A stretch of 64,000 nucleotides of DNA from Planctomycetota bacterium (GCA_038060895.1 JBBTCT010000022.1:160001-224000); one strand, 5' to 3'. Positions 22,029-39,245 are shown, counted from the first letter of the stretch. The notes: generated by a model from the letters alone, not told the origin. Translations and numbers: made by a program.

Positions 22029-22102
22029 TGCCCTCGGCTGGATTCGAACCAGCACGAACATGGCTCTCGACCATGCGCCTCTGCCCATTGGGCTACGAGG
22101 GC
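22029..22102 (-). tRNA. trnL: tRNA-Leu(GAG), short variable loop, C33
   Basis: GCCCTCG...CATGG-TCGAGAG-CCATG...GCTGG-TTCGAAT-CCAGC-CGAGGGC-A. Confidence 0.88.
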
Positions 22103-22398
22103 AAATCTGTCCGACGGATCTTCCTTTCATGCCCCGGGCTGTACGCAAATACGAACTATCCGGGGTACCGGCTCGGGCTGTACTTCCGGATCCAGGACCG
22201 GCGTGTAAAGCCAAGCCTGGCTTGGGATTCCGACGGAAAGGAGCTTTCCAAGCTCGATCTTCGGTCGCCGACCACTATCGGGAGGAAGTCTAGGAAGATG
22301 ATCGCCCAAGAGGCCCTCGAGGTTCATCGCTCGCCGAAGTGATTCCGGTACCTCGGCCGAGGATTGCCATCGAGCTCTCGATGAGACGTCACGGGTCG

Positions 22399-24651
22399 CT
22401 AGGAATCGGAAGCCGGGTCTTGGGGCAATTCGGAGGGGTGCTCATCTGCCTGCGGTACTTGGGCAGGAGGCTTTTGCTGTTTCAGCTTCTCGTGACAGAA
22501 AATGAACTGCTCTGCGACCAGAACATCCGGCGAGTCCGACGCATCCGGGAACTCCTTACGGTTCTTGAAATCTCCCGCGCAGTGCGAAACGACCAAACTC
22601 GCGAGCTTGTCGGAGTCCACGAACCACTCAATCTCTTCCATGGTGCGGGCACCGACCTCGCCGACGTGTGCGATTCGAGACTTTGCGTACCAAGCCCGAG
22701 GAGCGACCGCACGCAGGAATCTGATGATCTGTTTCGCATCCTTCGCGAAAAGCTCCAACAGGTACGCCTCAACCGGCGTCTTTCCTTCGTGTCGTCGCCA
22801 GTCACCCAGGGGATTCCGAGCGCCGTGCTCCGCATCGTCGAGAAAGTCGTGGCCGGTTGCCGCCGCCTTCTTGACTCGCTCCACGAATGCTTTTCGAACA
22901 CGCTCGAATGCTGGTTGGTCGAGATCGTCCTTCTCTGCGCGTTCTTCGCGGCCGGAGTACATCGCCCGGATGCACTCCGAAGAAAAGTGGATTGGTTCCG
23001 CGGTCATGACTACTGTCGTGGCGACTCGTTCGCGCTCGTTCATCTCAGGAATTTGCCGAAGTAGATCTGAGACGAGGAACGCAGCTTGGGCTCGCGGCTC
23101 CAGGAATGGAACCGAGGATCGAGGCGCAGGAATTTGTGCGCAGCGCGGAGCCAAAGCGATTGCCAATCGCTCAGCGGCTCGCGGTGGTGCCGTCGCGGCC
23201 GCGAATCGAAGCTTTTCGATTCCCCGAGATGCCTTGAGCGGACTCAAGACGTTCTCGATGGCTTTGACCAAGTCGTCCTCAGTTCCGGTGGCGGCCAACG
23301 AGAATAACTGTCTTATTTCGCGATCCGCGACGTCGCGCAATCCGATCGCATGCGTGAAGTAGCGCTCGCTGTACTCAGGGCTGCAAACCCTTCGATCACT
23401 CCGCCAGCGTTCGAGCCACTCCGCTGGATACTCCGAATGACCGAACACGGCCTCGCTGCGCGGGAACAGTTCGATCAGCAGATTTCGTGCGGCTCGAGAA
23501 ACTACTTCCGGCATCGCTTCCAGAGTTGGATTCAGAAGCTTTGCGATCTCACGTTGTTCCTTCGGCGGTTTGCGATGCTCAGACTCGACGCCGGAAAACT
23601 CGTCAAGGTGGGAGCGCACGATTTCGAATACGTCAGGATGAAAGACTCGGAGGGCTTCCACCAAGAGCAAGTCGGCGAGGTTTACCTCCTCCTTGAGCAT
23701 CGGTAGCGCGAAAGCAACGGCGTTACAGAATCTCTTCGCTCGCCGGGGTGTCGAAAGTTCTACCTCCGCGCCTTCGTGAAAAGCGGACACGAATCGATCG
23801 ACCTCGCTTTGACTAAGTTCAACTCCTGCTTCCTTCAAGACTTGATTGAGCAGAGTGAAGCAAAAACTCCGAAGATCCTCGCTCGCGGCCGCAGGTAGGT
23901 TGAGAGGAAGCTGAACGATCTTCTCCAGAAATGCCCTTCCGCTGGCCGAGTCTCCGCCATAGGTTGCACCTAGCGCATTCGCAACAATCGTGTCGTCGAA
24001 AGCGAGGACATAAACGACATTCGGAAGATCAGCGCATGCCTTGACCAAGCGAAACAGCAGGTGGATCTCGTGGTTGTCCAGGCGGTCGATGTCATCGATC
24101 AGGACGACAACTCTCTTGTCGCTGGCTGCAAGAGCTTCAACGAGTCGCTCTCTCGACTGGTCGATCGTTGGTTGGCCCAGCTCAGCCGCCAACCCCGTCA
24201 CTTCCTTTGCGACTTGAGCGACTGGTCCAGGAATCACTCCAACAACTGGAGCTCCAAACCTACCCCAGCGACCGAGCCTTTCACAGATCTGCTCGATCAC
24301 GCCCTGTAGCTTCTTCCCCAAACTGGACGCCAATGAGTGAAAGAAGCCGAACAACATTCCGGTTTCATCGGTAAATCGCCATGGGTTGAACGAAACCAGC
24401 GAGATTCCCGCATCCTTTTGGAGATCTTCGCGAATGAAATTGAGAACGCTGGTTTTCCCGTCTCCCCAGGGTCCATGGATGCCAATAATCCAATTGCTAC
24501 CGCGCGACAGAGAACGAATTGTCTTACAGATTCCATCCGCAAACGGACGTCTGTTCAGTTGATCTTCCGCTTGGCCGCTGATCGCGGTATCCGTTAGGAA
24601 TCGGCCAGGCTCGTCAGCGTTATTCACGTGTGTTCCCTGAGAAGTGAGCAT
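22399..24651 (-). CDS. KAP family P-loop NTPase
   Basis: DQLNR, IGIHGPWGDGKT (Walker A), VVVLIDDIDRL (Walker B), FLEKIVQLP, TPRRAKR; start uncertain. Confidence 0.9.
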   Translation of the reverse strand: MLTSQGTHVNNADEPGRFLTDTAISGQAEDQLNRRPFADGICKTIRSLSRGSNWIIGIHGPWGDGKTSVLNFIREDLQKDAGISLVSFNPWRFTDETGMLFGFFHSLASSLGKKLQGVIEQICERLGRWGRFGAPVVGVIPGPVAQVAKEVTGLAAELGQPTIDQSRERLVEALAASDKRVVVLIDDIDRLDNHEIHLLFRLVKACADLPNVVYVLAFDDTIVANALGATYGGDSASGRAFLEKIVQLPLNLPAAASEDLRSFCFTLLNQVLKEAGVELSQSEVDRFVSAFHEGAEVELSTPRRAKRFCNAVAFALPMLKEEVNLADLLLVEALRVFHPDVFEIVRSHLDEFSGVESEHRKPPKEQREIAKLLNPTLEAMPEVVSRAARNLLIELFPRSEAVFGHSEYPAEWLERWRSDRRVCSPEYSERYFTHAIGLRDVADREIRQLFSLAATGTEDDLVKAIENVLSPLKASRGIEKLRFAAATAPPRAAERLAIALAPRCAQIPAPRSSVPFLEPRAQAAFLVSDLLRQIPEMNERERVATTVVMTAEPIHFSSECIRAMYSGREERAEKDDLDQPAFERVRKAFVERVKKAAATGHDFLDDAEHGARNPLGDWRRHEGKTPVEAYLLELFAKDAKQIIRFLRAVAPRAWYAKSRIAHVGEVGARTMEEIEWFVDSDKLASLVVSHCAGDFKNRKEFPDASDSPDVLVAEQFIFCHEKLKQQKPPAQVPQADEHPSELPQDPASDS

Positions 24652-24974
24652 TTGTTCACGGGCGAATAATGTCAGATCGGCTGGGCCTGAACTCCGCGGT
24701 CCTGCCGTGTGGCTGGACATGCACGACATTCGGGAGAATCTAGAATTCCTGTACTAAAGTTGTCATCTGTTGTCCCTGGGAGTGAAGAGGGGCGCGCCTG
24801 GCTCGCGCCCCTCCCGAAAGTGTTCCGGCTAGAAGTGGAAGAATCTCAGTATCGAGGCAATCCACAGTGCCTCGCTGGCCTTTTCAATCAGACAGCAAAA
24901 GTGATAAAGCGCACGCCATAACCACAGCCATCTCTGCTTATCCACCTGTTCCATCTCACTTCCTTTCAAAAGCA

Positions 24975-25376
24975 CTAGAGAATTGGAGCCGCACATTGCG
25001 GATTTCCATTTGGGGCGGTCCGGCCAGGACAGAGTCTCCCCTCACCACCTTTATCGCTCGAGACGGCCTGAGGGTTCGCAGTAGTTCCGGAGTCCGGCGG
25101 CGCGACGAGTGTGAGCTTGAGAAGGGGGATTGGTGCCGCGCCGGCGGCCGCGAGGACGTTTCGTAGGTCAGCATCCCCCACGCCGATCTTTCGCGCCACG
25201 TCGACGAGCTTGTCTACGTTGTCGAGGCGTTTCGCATCAAGCTCAGCCTGGAGAAGATCGTCCTCGATCCGGCGTCGTCGACTGGGACTGACGCGTTGGA
25301 CGATGGCACTCACCGCGTCCACGATGACGCGGAGCACGCCAGCGACTCCGAAGACGTCCTTGGTTCCCGGGCCCAT
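24975..25376 (-). CDS. Hypothetical protein
   Basis: RBS ggaggg upstream of ATG; helical N-terminal half. Confidence 0.45.
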   Translation of the reverse strand: MGPGTKDVFGVAGVLRVIVDAVSAIVQRVSPSRRRRIEDDLLQAELDAKRLDNVDKLVDVARKIGVGDADLRNVLAAAGAAPIPLLKLTLVAPPDSGTTANPQAVSSDKGGEGRLCPGRTAPNGNPQCAAPIL

Positions 25377-25836
25377 CAGATTTCCCTCCGGTTGTGATCC
25401 TGCTTCCTCTTCTTTGCAGGAAAGCCGACCTTGAAAGCAACGTCTTTTTCGATCTCCTCAAGTGTGTCCGCGCCGGAGGTGCTCGGGAAAATCTACGCTA
25501 CCGTTACGCTACCCTTCGCCCGTTCGAACCCCTGGAAAGCAAAGGGCGAACGAACGCGCGAGAGGCATGAGGTACGAGACCTGCTTCGCACATGAGCCGT
25601 TCTCGCACGAGGGAGAGGCTAAGTGCAAATTTGACGCAGGAGCATTCCGCTCGATAATTTCACAACTACATACGGCACAGTGCTTTACAGAGAATCAGAA
25701 AATTCGGATTCACGTGTCGTCTCTTGGTGTGATCGACTCCGTTGCTGCTCTCGTACGCCGCGCGCAGCAGGGTCTTAGACTTAGCCACGATCGAGCCCGA
25801 ACCGATCCACAACCAGGATCGATTAGACTCCGCACC

Positions 25837-27234
25837 GTGCTGCTCACCATCACCACTTCCAGTTCCCCCGCCACCGATCTGGGATTCCTTCTCCACAAGA
25901 ATCCAGCCCGCGCGCAATCCTTCGACCTCTCCTTCGGCAAAGCCCACGTTTTCTACCCCGAAGCGACGGAGCAGCGCTGCACGGCGGCGCTCTTGCTCGA
26001 GATCGACCCGATCGGCCTCGTGCGGGGAAAGCCGGGCAGTAGCGAAGGACAGTCACTCGACCAGTACGTGAATGACCGGCCCTACGTCGCTTCCTCGTTC
26101 CTGAGCGTGGCGATCTCGCAGATCTTCGGCTCGGCGCTTGCCGGGCGCAGCAAAGAGCGGCCCGAACTGGCGACGAAGCCGATGCAGCTCAAGGCAACGC
26201 TCTCGGTCATCCCATGCCGCGGTGGGGAGCCCTTTCTGCGGTCGCTCTTCGAGCCGCTCGGATATCGGGTCAGCGTCGAGTCGCACCCACTCGACGCGAC
26301 CTATCCCGACTGGGGCGACAGCGCGTACTTCACGCTCCACCTCCAGGGAACGTGCATGCTTCACGAGCTCCTGAGCCACCTTTACGTGCTGGTCCCGGTG
26401 ATGGACAACTCAAAGCACTACTGGGTCGGCGAGGACGAGGTCGAAAAACTGCTTCGTCACGGCGAGGGCTGGCTGGCCGGGCATCCGGAGAAGGACGCGA
26501 TCGCCCGCCGCTACCTCAAGCACCGACGGGACCTGTACCGCGACGCGTTGTCCCGGCTGGTCGAGGACGATCTCGATGAGCTGGAGTCAATGCGTGAGGG
26601 CCAGGCAAAGCAGGAAGCGGGGCTGGAAGAGAAGATCCGGCTTCACGACCTGCGGATGGGTGCGGTCGTCGCCGTCCTGCGCGAAATCGGCGCGAAGAGC
26701 GTCATGGACCTCGGCTGCGGCGAGGGCCGGCTGCTCCGCGACCTGTTGGCCGACAAGTCCTTCGAGCGCGTGCTCGGGATGGACGTGTCGCATCGCGCGC
26801 TCGAATTCGCGAGCGACAAGCTCAAGCTGGAGCGGATGCCGGAAATCCAGAAGTCGCGCCTGCAGCTCATCCAGGGATCGCTGACGTATCGCGACAAGCG
26901 TCTCGAGGGCTTTGACGCAGCGGCGCTGATCGAGGTGGTCGAACATCTCGACCCGGGTCGCCTTGACGCGTTCGAGCGCGTTCTGTTCGAGCACGCGAAG
27001 CCCAAGTTCGTGGTCCTCACGACTCCGAACTCAGACTACAACGTGAAGTTCGAGACGCTCCCGGCGGGCCAATTTCGACATAAGGACCACCGGTTCGAAT
27101 GGTCGCGTGCCGAATTTCGGGCGTGGGCGGAACGCGTCGCCGGCCGTGCCGGCTATCGAGTCCGGTATCTCCCCGTGGGCCCCGAGGACGCCGATGTCGG
27201 CGCACCCACCCAGATGGCGGTGTTCTCGCGGTGA
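25837..27234 (+). CDS. hen1: 3'-terminal RNA ribose 2'-O-methyltransferase Hen1
   Basis: LLTITT...PATDLGFLLHKNP, QYVNDRPYVASS, DNSKHYWV, DLGCGEG, IEVVEHLD, FRHKDHRFEW. Confidence 0.95.
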   Translation: MLLTITTSSSPATDLGFLLHKNPARAQSFDLSFGKAHVFYPEATEQRCTAALLLEIDPIGLVRGKPGSSEGQSLDQYVNDRPYVASSFLSVAISQIFGSALAGRSKERPELATKPMQLKATLSVIPCRGGEPFLRSLFEPLGYRVSVESHPLDATYPDWGDSAYFTLHLQGTCMLHELLSHLYVLVPVMDNSKHYWVGEDEVEKLLRHGEGWLAGHPEKDAIARRYLKHRRDLYRDALSRLVEDDLDELESMREGQAKQEAGLEEKIRLHDLRMGAVVAVLREIGAKSVMDLGCGEGRLLRDLLADKSFERVLGMDVSHRALEFASDKLKLERMPEIQKSRLQLIQGSLTYRDKRLEGFDAAALIEVVEHLDPGRLDAFERVLFEHAKPKFVVLTTPNSDYNVKFETLPAGQFRHKDHRFEWSRAEFRAWAERVAGRAGYRVRYLPVGPEDADVGAPTQMAVFSR

Positions 27235-29792
27235 AACTGAAAATCCCGGAGCTCTCGCTCGTCGTCCTCATCGGCCCCTCGGGCAGCGGAAAGTCCACGT
27301 TTGGGCGGAAGCACTTTCTCCCGACGGAGATCATTTCCTCGGACTTCTGCCGCGGCTTGGTGTCGGACGATGAGAACAATCAGGCCGCGACGAACGCGGC
27401 CTTTGAGGTGCTGCACTTCGTCGCGGGAAAGCGCTTGGCCGCAGGCAAGCTCACGGTCATCGACGCGACGAACGTCCAGGCCGAGGCCCGCAAGCCCCTC
27501 GTCGCGCTGGCCCGGGATTACCACTGCCTGCCGGTCGCAATCGTCCTGAACCTGCCTGAACGCATGTGTCAGGACCGCAACCGCGGCCGAAGCGAGCGCA
27601 CCTTCGGCCCCCACGTCATCCGGCAGCAGTCCCAGCAACTTCGCAACTCGCTCCGCAGTCTTCAGACGGAAGGCTTCAGGCACGTCCACGTACTCGCAAG
27701 CCCCGAGGAGATCGACGCGGCCACCATCGAGCGTGAGCCGCTCTGGAACAACCGCAAGAGTGAGCACGGCCCGTTCGACATCATCGGCGACGTTCACGGC
27801 TGCTTCGACGAAACGAAGGCGCTGCTGGAGCGTCTCGGGTATGTCGTCGAGGTCACGACCGCTGGCGAGCGCGCGATTACCGCGAGGCCCCCCGGGAATC
27901 GCAAAGCCGTCTTCGTCGGCGATCTCGTCGACCGCGGACCGAACACGCCCGACGTGCTGCGCCTGGTCATGGGCATGGTGGAAGCCGGGACTGCGCTGTG
28001 TGTCCCGGGAAACCACGACGTTAAACTTCTGCGGAAACTGCGCGGCAAGGACGTGCAGATCACGCATGGACTCGCCGAGTCCCTCGCCCAACTCGAGCAT
28101 GAAACGGCGGCGTTTCGCGAGAAGACGACCGCCTTCATCGATGACCTGGTGTCCCACTACGTGCTCGACGACAACAAACTGGTCGTAGCGCATGCCGGGA
28201 TGAAGGAGACCATGCAGGGCCGAGGCTCCGGCAAGGTGCGGGAGTTCGCGCTGTACGGCGAGACGACAGGGGAGACCGACGAGTTCGGCCTGCCCGTCCG
28301 TTACAACTGGGCCGCGGAGTATCGCGGGCCGTCGATAGTCGTCTACGGGCACACGCCGGTGCCGGCGCCTGAGTGGCTCAACAACACGATCAACATCGAC
28401 ACTGGCTGCGTCTTCGGCGGAAAGCTTACCGCGCTTCGCTACCCGGAGAAGGAGCTCGTTTCCATCCCCGCCGGCGCCATGTACGCGAAGCCGGCGAAGC
28501 CCTTTCAACCGGCGGAATCCCAGGCTCCTTCGCTCTCCGCGCAGCAGGCCCACGATGACTTGCTCGACCTCGCGGACGTGATCGGGAAGCGGATCGTCAC
28601 GACCCGCCTCCACCACAACGTCACGATTCGCGAAGAGAACGCGATCGCCGCACTCGAGGTCATGAGCCGCTTTGCCGCGAACCCGAAGTGGTTGATCTAC
28701 CTCCCGCCCACCATGTCGCCGCCGGAGACGTCGCAGGAAGGAAGTCTCCTGGAGCATCCGGCGCAGGCCTTCGCGTACTTCCGTCACGAAGGAATCCCAC
28801 GGGTCGTGTGCGAAGAAAAGCACATGGGATCACGGGTCGTCGTAGTGATTTGCCGCAACGAGGACGCAGCGCGTCGCCGGTTCGGCATCGTTGGTGAAAG
28901 CGGCATCTGCGTGACCCGCACCGGGCGCCGCTTCTTCGACGATGTCGCGTTTGAGAAAGAGCTTCTGGCGCATCTGCGGGAAGCGCTGGACCGCTCAGAG
29001 TTCTGGAAGGACTTCGACACGGACTGGGTCTGCCTCGATTGCGAACTGATGCCGTGGTCGGCGAAGGCCCAGGAATTGGTGAAGCGCCAGTACGCGGCCG
29101 TCGGGGCGGCGTCAGGGGCGGCGCTGAAGGACTCAGTCGAGACCTTGAAAACCGCAGCAGCGCGGGGCGTGGACGTCGCTTCGCTGCTTGAACGCTCGAT
29201 CGAACGCGCCTCCCTCGCCGAGAAGTACGTCACCGCCTATCGCGGGTACTGCTGGCCGGTCAAGTCACTGGCAGACATCAAGCTTGCACCGTTCCACGTG
29301 CTGGCCACCGAGGGGAAAACGTACTTCGACAAGAATCACCTCTGGCACATGAGCGCCATCTCCCGGTTCTGCAAGGGAAGCCCGATCCTCGTTGAGACTC
29401 GTTTCATCGAGGTCAGTGTCACGGATGAGGCCAGCGAACAGGCGGGAATCCGCTGGTGGGAGGAGCTGACTTCGCGCGGCGGAGAGGGAATGGTCGTGAA
29501 GCCCCTTGACTTCGTGGCGCAGGGGAGGAAGGGAGTCGCCCAGCCGGCCGTAAAGTGCCGCGGTCCCGAGTACCTGCGCATCATCTACGGCCCGGACTAC
29601 TCGATCCCCGCGAACCTGAGTCGGCTCCGCTCCCGCGGCCTCGGCGCAAAGCGCTCTCTAGCGATGAGGGAGTTCGCCCTCGGAGTCGAGGGCCTTGAGC
29701 GATTCGTCCGCAACGAGCCGCTTCGGTGAGTGCACGAGTGCGTATTCGGTGTGCTCGCGCTGGAAAGCGAGCCGGTCGACCCGCGGCTGTAG
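27231..29792 (+). CDS. pnkp: Polynucleotide kinase-phosphatase-ligase Pnkp, interrupted by an in-frame TGA at 29727-29729
   Basis: GPSGSGKST kinase; IIGDVHG/GDLVDRG/GNHD phosphatase; EEKHMGSR, EGMVVKP and KCRG ligase motifs; conserved tail VHECVFGVLALESEPVDPRL continues in frame after the TGA. Confidence 0.93.
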
Positions 29793-30422
29793 TGCTTCGC
29801 AGAAACGGGAAGTTCACATCGTGCCGAAAAACATCGGACGGTATGTCCGAGCTAAAACATCGGGGCCGAGATCTATCCATTCTGTTAGTCCCCGGGAATC
29901 TCAACGGCAATCGCCCGTTGCTCGTCGTCATCTTCTTTCCGCAGCAGCCCCCATGCCATTCGCGCGATCCGAAAGAACTCTGGCAAGGGCTGAGTGCCGG
30001 CCCAAGAGGCCAGCGGCACACGCCTGACACCGCCACCTGACTTCCGGACCTGAGCGTCGATGTGGGCACTCGCCAGAGGCCGCTCCGCAAGCGGAACGAG
30101 CCGAAGTCGGTCACGAAATCTCCGAATCACGGTGTCGAGGCTCGTGGAATGCAGACTGCGATACGAGTCCGTCCCGCTCGGCCACTTGAGAACGAAGAAC
30201 AGGTACCCCGTAGCTTTGTTGGGGACCCTTCGGTTTCGAGAAACGACCCGATAAACGCGCATGAACCGGAAGTCTACGAAATCGATGAATGTCTCCGTGC
30301 GGAAAGCGTTGACGCATGTGAAGCCCCGAACAGCCCGCCGCGTCACCGCGCTTGATTCGGGGCGACCCTCGGGACTAGCCTCCTGCTTTGGGACGCGTTC
30401 GCATCAGAAGGGTTACGATTTC

Positions 30423-30650
30423 ATGAGCGAAGGTGACGAGTACCTGCGGATGTACCCGCGCCTCGAAAAGTGGGTCCATCGGTGTGTAGGGTGCCAGCAT
30501 CGCGGGTACAAGCCCGAGCTGCCCGCCCACATTCCCCCGGGGGGCGCCGCGAAGAACATCCGTTCGCTCTTTGACGAACTCAGCCTCAACGGCGACGGAC
30601 TTTGCCAACAGTGCGCGAGAAACGTCGGGCGTGGGAACGCGGGTGCCTAA
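30423..30650 (+). CDS. Small putative Zn-binding protein
   Basis: 75 aa with CVGC...CQQC. Confidence 0.55.
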   Translation: MSEGDEYLRMYPRLEKWVHRCVGCQHRGYKPELPAHIPPGGAAKNIRSLFDELSLNGDGLCQQCARNVGRGNAGA

Positions 30651-30699
30651 ACTGGTGACCTAGGCCAGCTGGAGTCCAAAGAGTGCTTGATCCAAGAAG

Positions 30700-30843
30700 A
30701 TGTCACTCCGAAATCGCTCGGCTGAAGAAGCTGATGCGATCAGGGGACGATGAGCAGATCCGAATCAGCAACATCGCCGCGACCTACCGGATGGCTGGGA
30801 ACCGCAGGCGCGCGTTCGAGTGGTGGAAGCGCGCCGCCAGATG
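30700..30843 (+). pseudogene. Sel1/TPR-like gene remnant
   Basis: Reads EIARLKKLMRSGDDEQIRISNIAATYRMAGNRRRAFEWWKRAAR*; short and apparently frameshifted at the 5' end. Confidence 0.4.
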
Positions 30844-31018
30844 AACACGGATGCGCGATGACTGGCCCGCTTCCTCAAAGGCAATTGCCACGGGGTCCGG
30901 CAGATCTTCACCTACTTTAACGAGCGGAGGCCTTGGTTCACCCGATCAGGACCTGAACCAGTTGATGCGACTCCTGTGACAGTGGCAGAATACGACTTCG
31001 CATCTCTGGGGAGGGTCG

Positions 31019-31429
31019 ATGTCAATCACACTGCTGATTCGGGACGAGTCCGCGACGGGCGAAAGCTACCAGGAACTCCCCATCGAGTTCGAGACGGAGC
31101 GCATCACCGTGCGGGACCTGATCCGGGAGCGGGTGAGGCAGGAGGTGTCCTCGTTCAATCAGAAGCAGGGAGACCTGCACTTTCGCGGCCTGGTGCAACC
31201 GACCGACACCGAGCGGGTGCTGAACGGGCGGCGAACCGAGTATCGGCTGAAGGCTCCGCGTTCGATTGACTGGGAGGAGCAGTTCAGTCGCGCGATCGAG
31301 GCTTTCGGCCGGAGCGGGTTCTTTCTGCTCGTGGGCGAAAAGCAGGTCGAGAGCCTTGATCAAGAGCTCCTGATCGAGCCAGACACCCGGGTCAGCTTCG
31401 TGAAGCTCGTCCCGCTCGTGGGAGGCTAG
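31019..31429 (+). CDS. Ubiquitin-like (beta-grasp) protein with C-terminal GG
   Basis: RBS ggaggg; ITVRDLIRERV, FFLLVGEKQV, DTRVSFVKLVPLVGG* resembles the MoaD/ThiS/Ubl C-terminus. Confidence 0.7.
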   Translation: MSITLLIRDESATGESYQELPIEFETERITVRDLIRERVRQEVSSFNQKQGDLHFRGLVQPTDTERVLNGRRTEYRLKAPRSIDWEEQFSRAIEAFGRSGFFLLVGEKQVESLDQELLIEPDTRVSFVKLVPLVGG

Positions 31430-31431
31430 GC

Positions 31432-34400: not shown

Positions 34401-34746
34401 TGGCGAGCTCTCCGCGAGCGCGGCGACGCGGCGGGAGGTGCTTCAGCGTCTCGTCCCGCGCCTCAAGATCGCCGACCGATGCTCCTTCGCGGACCGCTTC
34501 CTCATCGTGCGTGGTGAGAAGCGCACGTACAAAATCCACCTGGGCTCGGGAAACATCCTGATGGAACCGAATGACCAGTACCTCTGCATTGTTCCGGACC
34601 AGCGAGCTCGCTCGGCCGAAGAGAGCCTGTACCTCCCATTCGAGGGTGATTCCGTGCTCTCCATCATCATTAGCAAGGCGCTCCTTCTCGCCGCTGACTC
34701 GAAGATCAAGGATCCCACGATCGTGACGCAGATCGAGAAGGTCTGA
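31432..34746 (+). CDS. DUF4132 domain protein
   Basis: YLDHPLVG...RRLIW, ITLWHPV, QPFKQAHRE, FSESMRDVDLFV, YKIHLGSGN. Confidence 0.88.
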   Translation: MAKESFFHRFSAPSGDPLATEHEAVALYVTQALASLGKESYWKDLDLKAIPAGQVILAAKPEQARRFLLAAVAQSVHWEREIEQVRAQAKNVHEQMNAHHLPGWLEAYGPQRQTMQVAQALLRRSLPLKKDDIRSLLAWCISGKDGISFMLPIGFVTRAIERYIAEESLDQEIRAQLEDFGKRLRASHDKDSKRFATAVEQMCAGEGSLAETPVPTTRTPAPRPSQAGNPTILVALKQKLGVAGTTPEVPHSETGADRFSLRADSPLGPEHEKLNAVMTEVVGTTNYYSPDFRKLASGRAVLDTSRPERGRMLLAGAERRIGVLLAPAAALNEPAVWQSRYAAAATVSALRHSPVDLDRAQLFDFLLYLSALQGREILNWAEDFPRFLTQLESESARDPLTEGERYVLFLWRACLMSGPPLGTSSQEIAKLTALIGDGAMFFLVPGEAWSDALNTSLTELPARGRAAWKDLLVHALTATASRPSEKWLKTGRKLIEGVGAETARDFLSAWLALVQKGQTIRKPGAGDVIHEENATCLRGLLWLVPLLLRRDDLARTVSSVALSAYRKIPGVGPRAVKVGNAAVYALSELGSTDAVGQLAMLKVRVKFGTAQKEIEKAFDASAQALGLPRDQIEEMGVPSYGLEEVGRLKESIGQYQAELLVTGSDAELKWSDAAGKALKSVPAALKKEHGEELKELQQSLKDIQAMLPAQRDRIDALFLSQKSWPLGAWRERYLDHPLVGSISRRLIWCVDGAPALFLDGTASDVHGKSFRASEGATITLWHPVGRSVVEITSWRRRLESLGVTQPFKQAHREIYLLTDAELRTRTYSNRFAAHILRQHQFNALCAARGWKNKLRLMVDDTYPPATRDLPQWGLRVEFWIEGVGTEYGGDTNESGVYLRVATDQVRFYRRETAESRAHAGGGGYAANAGGPAHGNDIEPLTLDLIPPLVFSESMRDVDLFVGVGSVGNDPTWQDGGPQGAFRAYWQSYSFGELSASAATRREVLQRLVPRLKIADRCSFADRFLIVRGEKRTYKIHLGSGNILMEPNDQYLCIVPDQRARSAEESLYLPFEGDSVLSIIISKALLLAADSKIKDPTIVTQIEKV

Positions 34747-35134
34747 GAGGCCCCGGACCCTGCGCGCTTAAGGCAGTCTCGGAATCTCGCCGTGCCGGAC
34801 GGAAGTAACTGCATCGGATAACCGAGCCCAGACCGGCGAGTTCTTCGTTGCTTGAAAAGGGCTCCCCGATCAGAACTCGAACTGATTGCGCGAGCATTTC
34901 GCGATGATGGCGCTTCATGCATCGAAGCTGTCAAGGCGCCGCGTCCACGGGACAGGGCCTACTCGTGCGCTCAGCGGAAAGTTCGGATTTCATCCAGACT
35001 GGTGACCAGACTGGATACGAATACGAACTATGGCCGAGATGGCGAAGGGCCTCCAGTTCAGCTAACTGAAGCCAGCGGCGGAAGTTGCATCAATTTCTGC
35101 CTGCGACAGCTGATAGTTCGTATTTCATCCAAAG

Positions 35135-35207
35135 TGCCCCCCGCAGGATTCGAACCTGCACAAGACCGGTTTTGAATCGGTCGCCTCTGCCGTTGGGCTA
35201 CGAGGGC
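35135..35207 (-). tRNA. trnL: tRNA-Leu(CAA), short variable loop
   Basis: Loop TTCAAAA; T-loop TTCGAAT; G7:G66 mismatch. Confidence 0.82.
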
Positions 35208-35219
35208 CTGCGAATCAAA

Positions 35220-35290
35220 AGCTCCCGATGGGAATCGAACCCACACCCTCCTGCTTACGAGGCAGGTGCTCTCCTTTGAGCTACAAGAGC
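35220..35290 (-). tRNA. trnT: tRNA-Thr(CGT)
   Basis: CCTGC-CTCGTAA-GCAGG. Confidence 0.85.
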
Positions 35291-35293
35291 GGA

Positions 35294-35364
35294 TGCGCTC
35301 GTCAGGACTCGAACCTGCATCGGCCGGTTATCGACCGGCTGCTCTACCGCTGAGCTACGGGCGC
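35294..35364 (-). tRNA. trnI: tRNA-Ile(GAT), C33
   Basis: GCCGG-TCGATAA-CCGGC. Confidence 0.85.
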
Positions 35365-35367
35365 GCA

Positions 35368-35438
35368 AGCCTCTCGAGGGGGACGATCCCTCTTCTCCTG
35401 CCTGGGAAGCAGGCGTTCCACCGTTAAACCAGAGAGGC
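35368..35438 (-). tRNA. trnG: tRNA-Gly(CCC), aberrant T-loop
   Basis: CCTGC-TTCCCAG-GCAGG; T-loop ATCGTCC; U73. Confidence 0.75.
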
Positions 35439-35442
35439 GAAG

Positions 35443-35514
35443 TGCTCTCGGCAGGAATCGAACCTGCGGTCTTCAGCATGTCGGGCTGCCGCTCTTCCGC
35501 TGAGCTACGAGAGC
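35443..35514 (-). tRNA. trnV: tRNA-Val(GAC), C33
   Basis: CAGC-CCGACAT-GCTG. Confidence 0.85.
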
Positions 35515-35581
35515 CGTTCGACTCGCTTCGCTCGCTCACGGCGGAGCAGACGAGTTCGGTCGAATCGCGGGCAAAACCAGA

Positions 35582-35652
35582 TGGTCCCAGGAGGAGTTGA
35601 ACCTCCGTCGCCGGTATGTGAGACCGGCATTCTCCCGTTGAACTACGGGACC
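35582..35652 (-). tRNA. trnV: tRNA-Val(CAC)
   Basis: CCGGT-CTCACAT-ACCGG. Confidence 0.87.
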
Positions 35653-35654
35653 GA

Positions 35655-35727
35655 TGCTCGGGGGAGGATTCGAACCTCCACTGACCAGCTTCTGAGACTG
35701 GTGCCTCTGCCGTTGGGCTACGCGAGC
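35655..35727 (-). tRNA. trnL: tRNA-Leu(CAG), short variable loop
   Basis: CCAGT-CTCAGAA-GCTGG. Confidence 0.83.
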
Positions 35728-35856
35728 GTTGTGGTTGTCGCTGGGGACGACTGGATGTGGGCGGCCGTGCGGCGGAGGCGAAGGGTGCCCCGGCGCGCGC
35801 CTGGTTCATCAGCACTCTTGCGCCCGCAGCCTCCGACGCCGGGCGCCCACGTCCAG

Positions 35857-35932
35857 TCGGGATGGCTGGATTTGAACCAGCGATCTCCTCGTCCCGAACG
35901 AGGCGTGTTGAGCCAGGCTTCACTACATCCCG
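35857..35932 (-). tRNA. trnP: tRNA-Pro(CGG)
   Basis: C1:G72, CCTCG-TTCGGGA-CGAGG. Confidence 0.9.
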
Positions 35933-35934
35933 GA

Positions 35935-36006
35935 AGCGACTGGTGGGACTCGAACCCACGTCGACCACCATGGCAAGGTGGCGCTCAGCCTCTGAGCCAC
36001 AGCCGC
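35935..36006 (-). tRNA. trnG: tRNA-Gly(GCC)
   Basis: CCACC-TTGCCAT-GGTGG, U73. Confidence 0.9.
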
Positions 36007-36020
36007 GTTTTGATTCAAGA

Positions 36021-36093
36021 AGCCCTCGGCGGGGATCGAACCCGCATCAGCTTGTTTGGAAGACAGGCGCCTTCGCCGTTCGGCCACGAGAGC
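36021..36093 (-). tRNA. trnG: tRNA-Gly(TCC)
   Basis: Loop CTTCCAA, U73. Confidence 0.85.
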
Positions 36094-36107
36094 GGAATTG
36101 TTGTAAG

Positions 36108-36185
36108 TGGGCCCTCGACGGGAGTCGAACCCGTCGTCTCCCTTCCTCATACGGAAGGGTGTCTCGCCGCTCGACTACGAGGACC
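36108..36185 (-). tRNA. Non-canonical tRNA-like RNA with enlarged anticodon arm (possible His(ATG))
   Basis: GGTCCTCG/CGAGGGCC 8-bp acceptor, normal T-arm ACGGG-TTCGACT-CCCGT, anticodon arm CCCTTCC-GTATGA-GGAAGGG. Confidence 0.65.
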
Positions 36186-36189
36186 GTTA

Positions 36190-36273
36190 TGGGTGCGGCA
36201 GGAGTTGAACCTGCTGAGCCCGCGAGGGCTGCTGGGTTACGGCCAGCTCAGTTTTCCGATTCCGTACACACCC
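36190..36273 (-). tRNA. trnY: tRNA-Tyr(GTA), C33, long variable arm
   Basis: GCTGG-CCGTAAC-CCAGC. Confidence 0.87.
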
Positions 36274-36394
36274 TGAGTTCGCGCGACGGGTCGGCGAGTC
36301 GCGCAATTGACGGTGGGCGCTTCGACTCGTGTCCGGGCGCTTCGCGCCCGGCACTCGCTCAGGGCATTCGCCTCGCCAGAGCCACCGTTCGCGG

Positions 36395-36457
36395 TCGGCT
36401 CCGCCATGAGCGAGCCCCCGTGAGAGGCGCGGTGCGCCTCTCACGGTGCGAGTCGAA
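36395..36457. repeat. REP-like element (TTCGACTC...CTCGCTCA family), copy 1
   Basis: tcggctccgccatgagcgagcccccgtgagaggcgcg...gcgagtcgaa; near-identical copy at 37276-37339. Confidence 0.75.
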
Positions 36458-36529
36458 TGGAAGCGGCAGGGTTCGCACCTGCGTCGGCTCGTTTAGGAAA
36501 CGAGGGCCTGTCTACTCGGCCACACTTCC
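36458..36529 (-). tRNA. trnR: tRNA-Arg(CCT), G55 T-loop
   Basis: CTCGT-TTCCTAA-ACGAG; T-loop TGCGAAC. Confidence 0.8.
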
Positions 36530-36531
36530 GA

Positions 36532-36602
36532 TGGGGACGGAGGGAGTTGAACCCGCATCACGAGGTTCGTAGTCTCGTGTCCTTCCGTTGGACGACGTCC
36601 CC
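36532..36602 (-). tRNA. trnR: tRNA-Arg(ACG)
   Basis: Loop CTACGAA. Confidence 0.82.
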
Positions 36603-36608
36603 GACTCA

Positions 36609-36681
36609 TGGTGAAGGGTGGGATCGAACCACCACATCCTGGTCTTCAGCCAGGCGCTCAGACCCTCTGAGCTACTTCACC
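36609..36681 (-). tRNA. trnF: tRNA-Phe(GAA)
   Basis: CCTGG-CTGAAGA-CCAGG. Confidence 0.9.
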
Positions 36682-36686
36682 GCAAA

Positions 36687-36757
36687 TAGGCGCGGCGGGA
36701 ATCGAACCCGCTCTTTCAGGTTGAAGGCCTGGGTGCCTGCCATTAGCTGACGCGCCC
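36687..36757 (-). tRNA. trnE: tRNA-Glu(TTC), C33
   Basis: CAGG-CCTTCAA-CCTG. Confidence 0.78.
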
Positions 36758-36768
36758 GCACGATTGGA

Positions 36769-36841
36769 TGGGAGCGGAGGGATTCGAACCCTTCCTCGTC
36801 CGGGTTAAAAATCCGGTGCTCAGCCACTGAGCGACGCGCCC
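36769..36841 (-). tRNA. trnK: tRNA-Lys(TTT)
   Basis: Loop TTTTTAA. Confidence 0.83.
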
Positions 36842-36849
36842 TTGCGCAA

Positions 36850-36921
36850 TAGAGTCGGTGGGACTTGAACCCACATAGGCCTGCTTAAGAGGCAGGAGCT
36901 CGGCCGTTGAGCGACGACTCT
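36850..36921 (-). tRNA. trnK: tRNA-Lys(CTT)
   Basis: CCTGC-CTCTTAA-GCAGG. Confidence 0.88.
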
Positions 36922-36925
36922 GTAA

Positions 36926-36998
36926 TAGGGATGGAGGGATTCGAACCCTCGTCTCCAGGCTGAGAACCTGGCCGCCTTGGCCACTGGCCGACATCCCC
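36926..36998 (-). tRNA. trnE: tRNA-Glu(CTC)
   Basis: CCAGG-TTCTCAG-CCTGG. Confidence 0.85.
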
Positions 36999-37009
36999 GG
37001 GCGTAGAAA

Positions 37010-37080
37010 CAGGGGGGGCTGGATTCGAACCAGCAGAACGAGTGTCAGAGGCTCGGGGGTTACCGTTACCCGACCCCCCT
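37010..37080 (-). tRNA. trnQ: tRNA-Gln(CTG)
   Basis: Loop CTCTGAC, G73. Confidence 0.82.
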
Positions 37081-37087
37081 CTTTTGA

Positions 37088-37158
37088 CAGAGGCGGAAGG
37101 AATCGCACCCTCATCACCGGACTTGGAAACCGGAGTCCTGCTGTTGGACGACGCCTCT
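37088..37158 (-). tRNA. trnW: tRNA-Trp(CCA), G55 T-loop
   Basis: Loop TTCCAAG, A1:U72, G73; T-loop TGCGATT. Confidence 0.82.
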
Positions 37159-37163
37159 ACGAA

Positions 37164-37235
37164 TGGAAGTGGTGGGAATCGAACCCACAGTCTCCTGCTT
37201 GCGGAGCAGGCGCCTTCCCGTTGGGCTACACCCCC
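37164..37235 (-). tRNA. trnA: tRNA-Ala(CGC), C33
   Basis: G3:U70; CCTGC-TCCGCAA-GCAGG. Confidence 0.87.
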
Positions 37236-37275
37236 GAATGCAAGTCCTTCAACTGGTCAAAGCCTCCGTCCCGTC

Positions 37276-37339
37276 TCGGCTCCGCCATGAGCGAGCCCCC
37301 GTGAGAGGCGCGAAGCGCCTCACATGGGGGCGAGTCGAA
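37276..37339. repeat. REP-like element, copy 2
   Basis: Near-identical to 36395-36457; also abuts a tRNA 3' end. Confidence 0.75.
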
Positions 37340-37411
37340 TGGAAGCGGCGGGAATCGAACCCGCATGGGCCTGTCTGCCGGACAGGTGCCTTCCCGTTAG
37401 GCAACGCCCCC
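37340..37411 (-). tRNA. trnA: tRNA-Ala(GGC), C33
   Basis: G3:U70; CCTGT-CCGGCAG-ACAGG. Confidence 0.87.
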
Positions 37412-37433
37412 GACGTTTTCGTCGTTTTCCATT

Positions 37434-37550
37434 CCCGTGCGCGAGGATGTCGTGCGGCGCAGCGAGGAGGTGCGTCGGGCCCGCGCCGGCCATTTGGCGC
37501 GGAGTCCGGCGCGCTTCCTCGCGAAGCCGCACGACATCCTCGCGCACGGG
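37434..37550. repeat. Long hairpin at the 3' end of tRNA-Ser(GCT)
   Basis: cccgtgcgcgaggatgtcgtgcggc...gccgcacgacatcctcgcgcacggg. Confidence 0.85.
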
Positions 37551-37638
37551 GAGTGGGGTTTTCTACCCCCGGGGGCCGCCTTGAGGGCGGCCCGCCTCGT
37601 TAGCAATGAGGTGCTTTAAGCCGCTCAGCCACCTCCCC
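37547..37638 (-). tRNA. trnS: tRNA-Ser(GCT), degenerate T-arm
   Basis: Loop TTGCTAA, long variable arm, T-loop lacks TTC. Confidence 0.7.
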
Positions 37639-37666
37639 GGATTTGCGCGATGGGATCGCGCATTGA

Positions 37667-37755
37667 AGGAAGGTGAAGGATTCGAACCTTCGTCCCCCTC
37701 GCGGGGGCTCCTGTTTTCGAGACAGGCGCGATAAGCCGGACTCTGCCAACCTTCC
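37667..37755 (-). tRNA. trnS: tRNA-Ser(CGA)
   Basis: CCTGT-CTCGAAA-ACAGG, long variable arm. Confidence 0.9.
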
Positions 37756-37760
37756 GTGGA

Positions 37761-37833
37761 CAGGGGCACCAGGATTCGAACCTGGATCAACCTCCTTAAC
37801 AGGGAGGTGACTTACCGGTTAGCCCACACCCCT
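37761..37833 (-). tRNA. trnN: tRNA-Asn(GTT)
   Basis: CCTCC-CTGTTAA-GGAGG, G73. Confidence 0.87.
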
Positions 37834-37853
37834 AACTTGCACGGGCCTTTCCG

Positions 37854-37954
37854 CTCGTGCCGCGTGCGGCGGAGCGAATCTGGACGCCGCGCCCGCGCCG
37901 GACTTTCGGCGCGGCGTGCGGCGTCCGGATTCGCGGAGCCGCATGCGGCACGAG
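37854..37954. repeat. Long hairpin at the 3' end of tRNA-Asp
   Basis: ctcgtgccgcgtgcggc..gcgaatctggacgccgc / gcggcgtccggattcgc..gccgcatgcggcacgag. Confidence 0.85.
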
Positions 37955-38024
37955 GGCGACGGGATTTGAACCCGTGATCTCCGCCGTGACAGGGCGGTGT
38001 CTTGAGCCTCTGGACGACGCCCCC
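37951..38024 (-). tRNA. trnD: tRNA-Asp(GTC)
   Basis: CCGCC-CTGTCAC-GGCGG, G73. Confidence 0.92.
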
Positions 38025-38028
38025 AGAA

Positions 38029-38100
38029 TCGCGCCTGCAGGAATCGAACCTGCCTGCTCCTGGTTCCAGGCCAGGCGCGCAGCCACTGCGCCAAGACGCG
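38029..38100 (-). tRNA. trnP: tRNA-Pro(TGG), C33, A37
   Basis: C1:G72, A73; CCTGG-CCTGGAA-CCAGG. Confidence 0.85.
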
Positions 38101-38129
38101 AGGAATTGCTTTTTTGCCGGGCCGTTCCA

Positions 38130-38217
38130 TTTGCGGAGGGGTGGGAGTCGAAGGAACGCGGAGTCGCGCGGCCGTTCGTGCGACTCCGCGTTCCTTCGAC
38201 TCCCACCCCTCCGCAAA
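38130..38217. repeat. Long near-perfect hairpin at the 3' end of tRNA-Cys
   Basis: tttgcggaggggtgggagtcgaaggaacgcggagtcgc...gcgactccgcgttccttcgactcccacccctccgcaaa. Confidence 0.9.
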
Positions 38218-38290
38218 GCGCGGAAGTGGATTCGAACCACTGCGCACCGGTTTTGCGGACCGAGCCGTTGAGCCACTCCGGCATCCGCGC
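38217..38290 (-). tRNA. trnC: tRNA-Cys(GCA), C33
   Basis: CGGT-CCGCAAA-ACCG, U73. Confidence 0.85.
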
Positions 38291-38296
38291 GCTTGA

Positions 38297-38367
38297 TAGC
38301 GGGAAGGGGAATCGCACCCCTGTGTGCGGCTTATGAGACCGCCGATCAGCTACTGATCCATCCCGCA
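38297..38367 (-). tRNA. trnM: tRNA-Met(CAT), initiator-like (unpaired 1:72), G55 T-loop
   Basis: GCGGT-CTCATAA-GCCGC; T1:T72. Confidence 0.78.
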
Positions 38368-38455
38368 GGGATTTGAGGTGGGAGGTTGTTGATTTGCGAG
38401 GCGAGACGAACGGCCGCCTCGCCTCGCACATCAACAACCTCCCACCTCAAATCCC
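38368..38455. repeat. Long hairpin abutting the 5' end of tRNA-Met
   Basis: gggatttgaggtgggaggttgttgat...atcaacaacctcccacctcaaatccc. Confidence 0.9.
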
Positions 38456-38567
38456 CGGTACGGCAATGACCGCACGAACAGGGGAGAAAAGAACCGGCCC
38501 GGGCGCGTCGCCGTGAGGGGGGGAGGGGCGGACGTCGGGGGAGGGCCATTGTTGCCCGGGCCGGGGA

Positions 38568-38640
38568 TGTGTCCGGCAGGAGTCGCACCTGCAACCTCCA
38601 GATTCGGAGACTGGGGCTCTTCTGGTTGAGCTACAGACAC
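38568..38640 (-). tRNA. trnR: tRNA-Arg(CCG), A37, G55 T-loop
   Basis: Loop CTCCGAA; T-loop TGCGACT. Confidence 0.82.
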
Positions 38641-38667
38641 AGGGAAGAAGGGTCGTTTTGCCGTTCG

Positions 38668-38793
38668 CCAATTCGCGCTTCGGGATGATGAAGCGACGGG
38701 GTCGGGGCGAGCGGCCACACTTGAAGGCAAGCTGACCAGAGATTGTGAGCGAGCTCCGACTCCGTCGCTTCATCATCCCGAGGCGCGAATTGG
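38668..38793. repeat. Long hairpin (41-bp stem) at the 3' end of tRNA-Gln(TTG)
   Basis: ccaattcgcgcttcgggatgatgaagcgacggggtcggggc...gctccgactccgtcgcttcatcatcccgaggcgcgaattgg. Confidence 0.9.
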
Positions 38794-38860
38794 GGCGGCA
38801 CGACTCGAACGTGCACGGCGAGGTTCAAGGGCTCGCGGCCTACCTTTAGCTGACGCCCCA
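38790..38860 (-). tRNA. trnQ: tRNA-Gln(TTG), C33
   Basis: U1:A72, TGGGG start; loop CCTTGAA. Confidence 0.82.
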
Positions 38861-38878
38861 GAAGTTTCGTTGCCGTCC

Positions 38879-38994
38879 TGAATGCAGGGGTGTGATCGAT
38901 CGATTGGCTTGTCGTTCGGCCCGGGCGGAGCCGGCCGTATGGCGGAGGTCGGGACGAACGACGAGCCAATCGATCGATCACACCCCTGCATTCA
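38879..38994. repeat. Long hairpin (~40-bp stem) at the 3' end of the CTC tRNA
   Basis: tgaatgcaggggtgtgatcgatcgattggcttgtcgttcg...cgaacgacgagccaatcgatcgatcacacccctgcattca. Confidence 0.9.
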
Positions 38995-39067
38995 TCGGGG
39001 TTGAAGGAGTTGAACCTTCATCTGCGCATTGAGGGGGCGCCGTCCTCAGCCATTAGACGAAACCCCA
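38995..39067 (-). tRNA. tRNA with CTC anticodon (Glu) on a Gln-like acceptor, C33
   Basis: TGGGGTT/AACCCCG acceptor; GCGCC-CCCTCAA-TGCGC. Confidence 0.7.
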
Positions 39068-39089
39068 GGAAGGCGAGGGCAGCAGAGAT

Positions 39090-39230: not shown

Positions 39231-39245
39231 GACGTTCCTCCTGCA

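Follow-up and report, generated by a model that had tools for sequence, protein, structure and literature searches.

The window analyzed here, a stretch of 64,000 nucleotides (nt) from a Planctomycetota bacterium (GCA_038060895.1 JBBTCT010000022.1:160001-224000), contained 35 tRNA genes when its whole length was searched with ARAGORN, every one of them on the minus strand and 34 of them packed into a long tRNA array (L-array). The analysis concerned position 33 of the anticodon loop, where uridine (U33) is regarded as invariant in elongator tRNAs. Positions 32-38 were read from the sequence, and position 33 was C (C33) in 11 genes and U in 23, and the one other gene had an 8-nt loop. These 11 were exactly the genes named in a preliminary description of this DNA, with the loops quoted there, according to both ARAGORN and direct reading (Table 1). 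Infernal alignment to the Rfam tRNA model placed the C of tRNA-Val(GAC) and tRNA-Ile(GAT) in the consensus U33 column, and all 11 C33 genes exceeded the Rfam gathering score of 29 bits, nine of them in the whole-window scan and tRNA-Tyr and tRNA-Gln(TTG) with laxer filters. Altogether RF00005 matched 31 of the 35 genes in the whole-window scan, 30 of those among the 34 clustered genes, and the laxer Infernal filters added tRNA-Tyr (38.4 bits), tRNA-Gln(TTG) (38.1 bits) and the gene with the oversized loop; tRNA-Ser(GCT) at 37546 was scanned in the whole-window run alone.

The enrichment of C33 was confined to the array in this genome. In the rest of the 5.4-Mb assembly, C33 was present in 1 of 50 ARAGORN calls and the other 49 had U33 (1 of 42 when eight doubtful calls of at least 92 nt were left out). 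The tabulation of array against housekeeping tRNAs that had been proposed beforehand thus showed C33 to be enriched in the array (11/35 vs 1/50; Fisher exact p=1.6e-4). The 35 genes served all 20 amino acids, with anticodons that mostly started with G34 or C34. For 30 of the 34 three-letter array anticodons the same anticodon was found elsewhere in the genome, and the array tRNAs were only 49-78% identical to these housekeeping counterparts. The non-array tRNAs covered 19 amino acids, Asn not being found outside the array in this assembly, which is 86.5% complete. The array is therefore a supernumerary second tRNA set, its isodecoders being added to the housekeeping set.

The discriminator bases of the array tRNAs were mostly equal to the housekeeping ones. 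Identity elements had been described as kept in the C33 genes, and this stood for both tRNA-Ala and for tRNA-Cys (Table 1), whereas C1:G72 of tRNA-Pro(TGG) was not confirmed, its ARAGORN register beginning with T; tRNA-Pro(CGG) does have C1:G72. A tRNA array unit has been defined by a minimum of 20 tRNA genes with a density of 2 or more per kb (PMC4758250); the array described here, with 8 per kb, falls within this definition, and Planctomycetes are listed among the L-array-bearing phyla (PMC8421152). The contig that bears the array is at least about 400 kb long, and the surrounding genes are ordinary chromosomal ones, including those for triosephosphate isomerase (TIM), YicC, CoaBC, FtsK, a MiaB-type enzyme and PntB.

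Table 1 Features of the window. The last column gives the genomes of the genus in which the gene has C33, the source genome of the window (G000) included.
Feature	Coordinates	Strand	Evidence and remarks	Genomes with C33
L-array	35134..39316	-	34 genes in 4183 bp, one orientation, from His-GTG (39316) to Leu-CAA (35134); ARAGORN, Rfam RF00005, orthologous arrays in seven same-genus genomes	
tRNA-Leu(GAG), C33	22028..22102	-	detached array member, loop TCGAGAG; ARAGORN, Rfam 51.7 bits, orthologues	6/8
tRNA-Ile(GAT), C33	35294..35364	-	ARAGORN, Infernal alignment, orthologues	8/8
tRNA-Val(GAC), C33	35442..35514	-	ARAGORN, Infernal alignment, orthologues	7/7
tRNA-Tyr(GTA), C33	36190..36273	-	long variable arm; ARAGORN, Rfam with laxer filters, orthologues	7/7
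tRNA-Glu(TTC), C33	36687..36757	-	ARAGORN, orthologues	6/7
tRNA-Ala(CGC), C33	37164..37235	-	G3:U70 kept; ARAGORN, orthologues	6/7
tRNA-Ala(GGC), C33	37340..37411	-	G3:U70 kept; ARAGORN, orthologues	5/5
tRNA-Pro(TGG), C33	38028..38101	-	ARAGORN, orthologues	5/5
tRNA-Cys(GCA), C33	38217..38290	-	U73; ARAGORN, orthologues	5/7
tRNA-Gln(TTG), C33	38790..38860	-	ARAGORN, Rfam with laxer filters, orthologues; recent U-to-C change	1/6 (G000 alone)
second tRNA-Glu(CTC), C33	38995..39067	-	ARAGORN, orthologues	4/6
tRNA-like gene with oversized anticodon loop	36109..36184	-	loop 8 nt by ARAGORN, 9 nt by Infernal; 36.7 bits	
PifA-like KAP-family P-loop NTPase, 776 amino acids	22399..24729	-	Pfam KAP_NTPase 6.9e-46; PADLOC PifA 1e-84	
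Bacterial Hen1, RNA 3'-terminal 2'-O-methyltransferase (RNA repair)	25462..27234	+	Pfam Hen1_L 4e-115; NCBIfam TIGR04074 equivalog 729.7 bits, cut-off 340	
Bacterial Pnkp, polynucleotide kinase-phosphatase with ligase domain (RNA repair)	27099..29729	+	Pfam PNKP_ligase 2.6e-168; TIGR04075 equivalog 1388.9 bits, cut-off 750	
DUF4132/DUF7737 protein, 1104 amino acids	31432..34746	+	domain match; same insert as Pnkp and Hen1	
MarR-family regulator gene	39988..40512	+	Pfam MarR_2; divergent from the first gene of the array; neighbour of the array in seven other genus genomes	

Conservation and turnover of position 33 in the genus

The source genome (G000) was compared with the other seven genomes of the same uncultured Planctomycetota genus (G001-G007). 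The genomes compared are metagenome-assembled and 81-94% complete, and the eight arrays are kin, so that counts taken over them are not independent. The array was present at the same locus in all eight genomes, and its DNA matched the seven other genomes in many blocks with 67-97% identity. On the His side it was flanked by the MarR-family gene and a DCC1/MBOAT gene, and on the Leu side the same open reading frame of 423 amino acids and FtsK were found in G001. The flanks consisted of housekeeping genes (TIM, CoaBC, FtsK, PntB and others) and the array was not borne by a phage or mobile element. In a DNA similarity search of 33 genomes from elsewhere in the order and class, only weak matches of the size of a single tRNA were obtained. 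BLAST against phage and plasmid collections returned only single-tRNA-sized matches and no related array, and exact or degenerate patterns derived from the array tRNA-Arg(CCG), tRNA-His and tRNA-Tyr had no match among viral and metagenome contigs. The array is chromosomal and vertically inherited at one locus in the genus.

In the seven other genomes, 208 array tRNAs were called by ARAGORN and 55 of them had C33, which brought the genus total to 66 of 243 (27%). It had been proposed that U33 in the orthologous array tRNAs would speak against the pattern; instead, 49 of the 62 orthologues of the 11 genes outside G000 carried C33, with the distribution over individual genes displayed in Table 1. 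Further lineage-specific C33 was found in tRNA-Lys(TTT) and tRNA-Ser(GGA) of G004, tRNA-Leu(CAG) of G001, and tRNA-Gln(CTG) and tRNA-Arg(TCT) of G006.

Substitutions were mapped on a tree of the concatenated array orthologues with position 33 masked, in which G006 and G007 stood against a crown of six genomes. No change was seen over the 99 anticodon sites, and T54, T55, C56 and A58 changed at most 0.06 times per site, compared to 0.27-0.38 for the stems. When stem pairs did change, pairing was kept in 113 of 129 changed cells (88%) of the C33 tRNAs, 70 of them by double compensatory changes, and in 219 of 262 (84%) of the U33 tRNAs. The tRNA-Ile(GAT) had four different anticodon stems among the eight genomes, and C33 was found after each of them. 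Judged from these substitution patterns, the array genes look functional and kept by purifying selection.

Some array tRNAs departed from the canonical form at other positions as well. G18-G19 together with T54-U55-C56 was canonical in 29 of the 35. Five had G55, in T loops reading TGCGA or TGCAA, with AG in place of GG in the D loop, namely tRNA-Arg(CCT) (36458-36529), tRNA-Trp (37086-37159), tRNA-Met (38297-38367), tRNA-Arg(CCG) (38565-38641) and tRNA-His (39246-39316); tRNA-Ser(GCT) had an aberrant T loop with A55 and tRNA-Gly(CCC) had A54. Over the eight arrays, G55 was combined with AG in 32 tRNAs and with GG in 4, and U55 was combined with GG in 206 and with AG in none. The G18:pseudouridine-55 tertiary pair seems to have been swapped for A18:G55 in these tRNAs, which looks like tertiary covariation in what would be working tRNAs. 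The same tRNA-His had U73, conserved in all seven aligned orthologues, and no encoded G-1, the preceding base being C; the housekeeping tRNA-His has C73. The three array tRNA-Leu (22028-22102, 35134-35207 and 35655-35727) were 73-75 nt long, with variable loops of 4-5 nt and no long variable arm, and their orthologues 73-78 nt, compared to 82-87 nt for the housekeeping tRNA-Leu. They kept A73 and a Leu-like D arm (3-bp stem and a ...GGCAGA loop). Outside the array, a 73-nt tRNA called Pro(TGG) on another contig of the source genome (C9:99057-99129) had A73 and a Leu-type D loop (CAATCGGCAGA) as in the short array tRNA-Leu; this gene is perhaps a stray relative of the tRNAs in the array. The gene with the oversized loop sits between tRNA-Gly(TCC) and tRNA-Tyr, and its counterparts in four other genomes, about 72-74% identical, were called GTT, TTG or not at all.

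These non-canonical traits occurring together, C33, G55, short tRNA-Leu, tRNA-His without G-1:C73 and one oversized loop, could be taken for the symptoms of drifting pseudogenes. Poor expression is also reported to be common in L-arrays elsewhere, and of the 26 array genes in Anabaena, 3 are reported to be pseudogene-like (PMC8421152). However, the anticodons and the T-loop core stayed unchanged across the eight genomes, 84-88% of the stem changes kept pairing with many double compensatory ones, G55 came with the D-loop change in 32 of 36 cases, and all 11 C33 genes scored above the Rfam threshold. Decay is contradicted by the stem covariation and is not tenable; we regard it as scarcely probable. 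The view of the preliminary description that C33 is not a product of random decay agreed with the retention of C33 in the orthologues and with the compensatory changes in the stems. Other invariant positions had not decayed to the same extent: T54, C56 and A58 hardly change.

A second part of that view, that the same change in 11 unrelated genes is unlikely to be drift, was not demonstrated. Over 33 orthologue groups, position 33 underwent 10 changes (0.30 per site), all of them U/C transitions in both directions and none a transversion. This rate is about that of the stem positions, and lies below those of position 32 (0.67), the variable loop (1.0) and T-loop position 59 (1.45). By inspection, four polarisable changes ran from U to C (Gln-TTG in G000, Leu-CAG in G001, Lys-TTT in G004 and Gln-CTG in G006) and one from C to U (Glu-CTC in G001); as there are over twice as many U33 sites as C33 sites, gain and loss have similar rates per site. 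Position 33 thus appears to behave as a pyrimidine-constrained site with slow U/C turnover, which would be enough to explain the pattern; directional selection does not seem to be needed, although it may have acted as well.

Housekeeping tRNA-Val(GAC) and other C33 tRNAs

The sole C33 tRNA outside the array was the single-copy housekeeping tRNA-Val(GAC) (contig C7:152758-152831 of G000), with the loop TCGACAC. Its region was searched in 40 relatives and ARAGORN was run on the 30 loci returned. The gene was found in 23 genomes of the class, from many families, and the same C33 loop was present in all 23, on four covarying stems; tRNA-Val(TAC) and tRNA-Val(CAC) at those loci had U33. Across the phylum, 151 genomes were scanned with a pattern in which positions 32 and 33 could each be C or U. 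There were 16 matches, in 15 of the genomes, and C33 was present each time, the pattern being narrow and silent on Val tRNAs with other stems. C33 is thus conserved in an essential tRNA, and an essential C33 elongator has therefore long been kept in the group. The ribosome and the valyl-tRNA synthetase of the lineage evidently work with such an elongator.

Activation by C-to-U editing had been offered as one account of the C33 genes: a deaminase would restore U33 in the mature tRNA, and C33 would be silent or a switch. Nothing direct spoke for this, although it would reconcile C33 genes with a need for U33, and a lineage-wide enzyme could serve tRNA-Val(GAC) too. Under editing, however, tRNA-Val(GAC) should have drifted to U33 somewhere, and instead position 33 was C in 23 of 23 and in 16 of 16. 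We know of no tRNA editing at position 33, and consider this account very improbable.

Altered decoding or modification, another of the accounts offered beforehand, would mean that C33 was selected in particular tRNAs, where it restricts wobble, slows decoding or removes a modification determinant. The bacterial tRNA-guanine transglycosylase uses U33-G34-U35, so that a tRNA-Tyr(GTA) with C33 would escape queuosine. The strict C33 of the housekeeping tRNA-Val(GAC) over many families, in spite of an easy C-to-U transition, is consistent with such selection, as is the genus-wide stability of C33 in the array tRNA-Ile(GAT), tRNA-Val(GAC), tRNA-Tyr(GTA) and tRNA-Ala(GGC) while their stems changed. 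On the other side, the C33 tRNAs shared no anticodon or codon class, the flips confined to single genomes (the four U-to-C changes above) were unsystematic, and the effect of C33 in yeast is reported to be minor (PMC13492127). A selected role in decoding or modification is therefore judged to be quite unlikely.

C33 was rare in other accessory tRNA sets. It was present in 1 of 29 tRNAs of the Mycobacterium phage Myrna array (Val-GAC), in 2 of 23 of a Mycolicibacterium plasmid array (Val-TAC and Met), and in none of 10 in the Streptomyces phage Quantum array and none of 24 in the Anabaena delta-plasmid array. Pooled, the four arrays had C33 in 3 of 86 tRNAs, compared to 66 of 243 in the genus (Fisher p 4e-7, overstated as the genus arrays are kin), and two of the three C33 cases were valine tRNAs. 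The genus array resembles published L-arrays in its dense tRNA genes (at least 20) of one orientation, in redundant isodecoders rather than new anticodons, and possibly in patchy occurrence among relatives. It differs from them in its 27% of C33, in its conserved chromosomal locus where no homing endonuclease or integrase was seen, and in its A18/G55 pairing and tRNA-Leu without the long arm. The Anabaena L-array is described as silent until translation is impaired, with 23 of its 26 tRNAs charged in vivo, and its tRNAs and the RtcB ligase were proposed to maintain the tRNA pool jointly when toxin RNases are induced (PMC8421152).

Elongators without U33 are reported only as exceptions, next to eukaryotic initiators, the case named being Candida tRNA-Ser (PMC5041475), and yeast tRNA-Leu(GAG) naturally has C33 with minimal functional effect (PMC13492127). 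Eukaryotic initiator tRNA-Met and yeast tRNA-Leu(GAG) share with the genus array a C in place of U33 in a working tRNA (PMC5041475, PMC13492127). These are single cases, however, whereas here C33 occurs in 11 bacterial elongators of nine amino-acid specificities, plus the essential tRNA-Val(GAC). Position 33 in arrays is not discussed in any of the papers cited here, and searches for it within PMC8421152 and PMC10264068 had no hit. No literature linking tRNA arrays with C33 was found, and nothing bacterial was found on C33 in tRNA-Val.

Proposed function of the array and the neighbouring RNA-repair genes

Based on the turnover and the lineage context, we read the array with moderate confidence as a functioning accessory tRNA set that requires no more than a pyrimidine at position 33, in a lineage at ease with C33. 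The stem-like U/C turnover and the C33 of the housekeeping tRNA-Val(GAC) together mean that a pyrimidine-only constraint in a C33-tolerant lineage suffices for the pattern, and no special selected role of C33 would have to be assumed. Transcription of the array would start upstream of tRNA-His and yield a precursor that is then processed. Its tRNAs would be charged by the host synthetases because most identity elements are kept, and they would decode mainly codons ending in G or C. In the C33 members, the anticodon loop would lack the N3-H contact of U33 and yet still turn. C33 would be tolerated in the array because the translation apparatus already handles a C33 elongator, the housekeeping tRNA-Val(GAC). 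U and C would interchange at position 33 over evolutionary time, with C33 fixed genus-wide in tRNA-Ile(GAT), tRNA-Val(GAC), tRNA-Tyr(GTA) and tRNA-Ala(GGC).

The Leu end of the array in G000 was interrupted by a 13-kb segment of lower GC content that parts tRNA-Leu(CAA) from tRNA-Leu(GAG). These two genes were adjacent in six other genomes and two genes apart in G001, where tRNA-Leu(GAG) comes before tRNA-Leu(CAA). The segment carried the Pnkp and Hen1 genes, which abut at 27099-27234, together with the PifA-like and DUF4132/DUF7737 genes (Table 1). Both equivalog models were far exceeded and the genes are adjacent, as in the known Pnkp/Hen1 system; differently, they lie here within a tRNA array (G000) or directly after one (G006). 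Pnkp was detected in these two of the eight genus genomes and was not found in the other six (81-94% complete). In G006 it starts about 190 bp past the last array gene, and the cassette lies at about 23.8-27.7 kb of contig C89. The two Pnkp proteins were 93-94% identical, compared to 61-73% for the flanking proteins; therefore, the cassette moved recently and reached the array twice, at slightly different points. Either a functional connection to tRNA damage or no more than insertion beside tRNA-Leu genes may explain its placement. The G006 copy contained one in-frame TGA. No association of Pnkp/Hen1 with tRNA arrays turned up in the cited literature, in which no search was aimed at it.

In T4-type systems, a phage tRNA set is linked with RNA repair enzymes. 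The cassette bears on the remaining account offered in the preliminary description, evasion of anticodon nucleases. The array would then be a spare set whose loops were selected to escape ribotoxins, with C33 and perhaps G55 as part of this hardening, and translation would be sustained with Pnkp/Hen1 where these are present. The set is a full one of 20 amino acids with sequences far from the housekeeping tRNAs, and of the 30 same-anticodon pairs, 9 differed at position 33 and 14 at position 32. Both times Pnkp lay inside the array or within 200 bp of it, and a PifA-like defence gene is in the same insert. There is precedent in phage tRNAs, whose loop or stem substitutions are proposed or, in one case, shown to block host tRNases (PMC10264068, PMC12409363), and in the Anabaena array, proposed to act with RtcB under toxin RNases (PMC8421152). 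The T5 tRNA-Lys was shown to escape host tRNases via substitutions near the cleavage site, the positions tested being 39 and 41 (PMC12409363), and other phage tRNAs were proposed to escape likewise (PMC10264068). Phage tRNA sets such as those of mycobacteriophage cluster C1 and T5 are also near-complete, with anticodon arms unlike those of the host (PMC10264068, PMC12409363).

Against hardening, the genus array is chromosomal and vertical and not phage-borne, position 33 lies outside the published escape positions (39 and 41 being the validated ones; PMC12409363), and a cognate nuclease is known for none of its tRNAs. C33 was present in only a third of the members, 8 or 9 loops were identical to housekeeping loops, and the essential housekeeping tRNA-Val(GAC), which needs no evasion, also has C33. 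Additionally, the repair cassette was not found in six of the eight genomes, and its position may be an insertion hot spot. To our knowledge, no nuclease depends on U33. Likewise, none was found in the cited literature, and U33C left the cleavage of an anticodon stem-loop by gamma-toxin unchanged (PMC2275089). We therefore regard hardening as unlikely, although with a chance worth keeping in mind. The same doubtful standing is given to a fuller version, in which C33 and A18/G55 were selected because they evade ribotoxins recognising U33 or the T loop, the mobile Pnkp/Hen1 cassette homes to the array as a partner, and C33 in tRNA-Val(GAC) is an old lineage-wide scar.

Several observations weigh against the reading of the array as working accessory tRNAs with a pyrimidine-only position 33. 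The evidence for array expression is weak. In one metatranscriptome library, which may contain DNA, two exact contigs lay on the array (35516-35820 and 36813-36974), over U33 genes and spacers, and no C33 loop was covered. Being an accessory array does not alone explain the C33 share, as the comparison with the four other arrays indicated. U is still preferred at position 33 in most members, since the neighbouring position 32 was about 60% C in G000 while position 33 was 31% C. By inspection, no rule for which tRNAs carry C33 was evident among the first anticodon base, codon frequency class and synthetase class; the G34 anticodons were split into 6 with C33 and 6 with U33, and frequent and rare codons were both represented among the C33 tRNAs. 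The lack of reversion in tRNA-Val(GAC) suggests that C33 is maintained there and not merely tolerated. With U73 and no G-1 in tRNA-His and no long arm in tRNA-Leu, charging is not assured for all array tRNAs. Finally, selection by tRNA damage is hinted at by the repair cassette beside the array.

In this bacterial lineage, roughly one in four tRNAs of a conserved accessory set and an essential valine tRNA have retained C33, with clear signs of purifying selection. The natural matched U33/C33 pairs between sister genomes (Gln-TTG, Leu-GAG and Cys-GCA) offer a test of the weight of the U-turn uridine in bacteria. The pattern also raises the question whether changes of the C33 type shield tRNAs from anticodon-loop nucleases, and the finding that an RNA-repair cassette came to lie at the array more than once gives a second lead on the purpose of L-arrays.

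On the His side, no sigma-70-like site preceded tRNA-His on the strand of the array in the promoter scan, which may not suit this phylum, and a sigma-70-like promoter was detected at 39920-39948 on the plus strand, the side of the MarR-family gene. Homologues of the MarR protein in Acidobacteriota and other phyla were 60-67% identical, which is high for such a distance. None of the 22 homologues outside the genus was beside an array, 21 of the loci being without tRNA and one having three scattered tRNA genes.

Six long inverted repeats occupied inter-tRNA spacers of the array (37434-37550, 37854-37954, 38130-38217, 38368-38455, 38668-38793 and 38879-38994), with arms of 37-45 nt that were 86-98% complementary. 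Another spacer stretch of the array had related copies on contig C19 of G000 and contig C17 of G002, so that small palindromic repeat elements seem to be involved.

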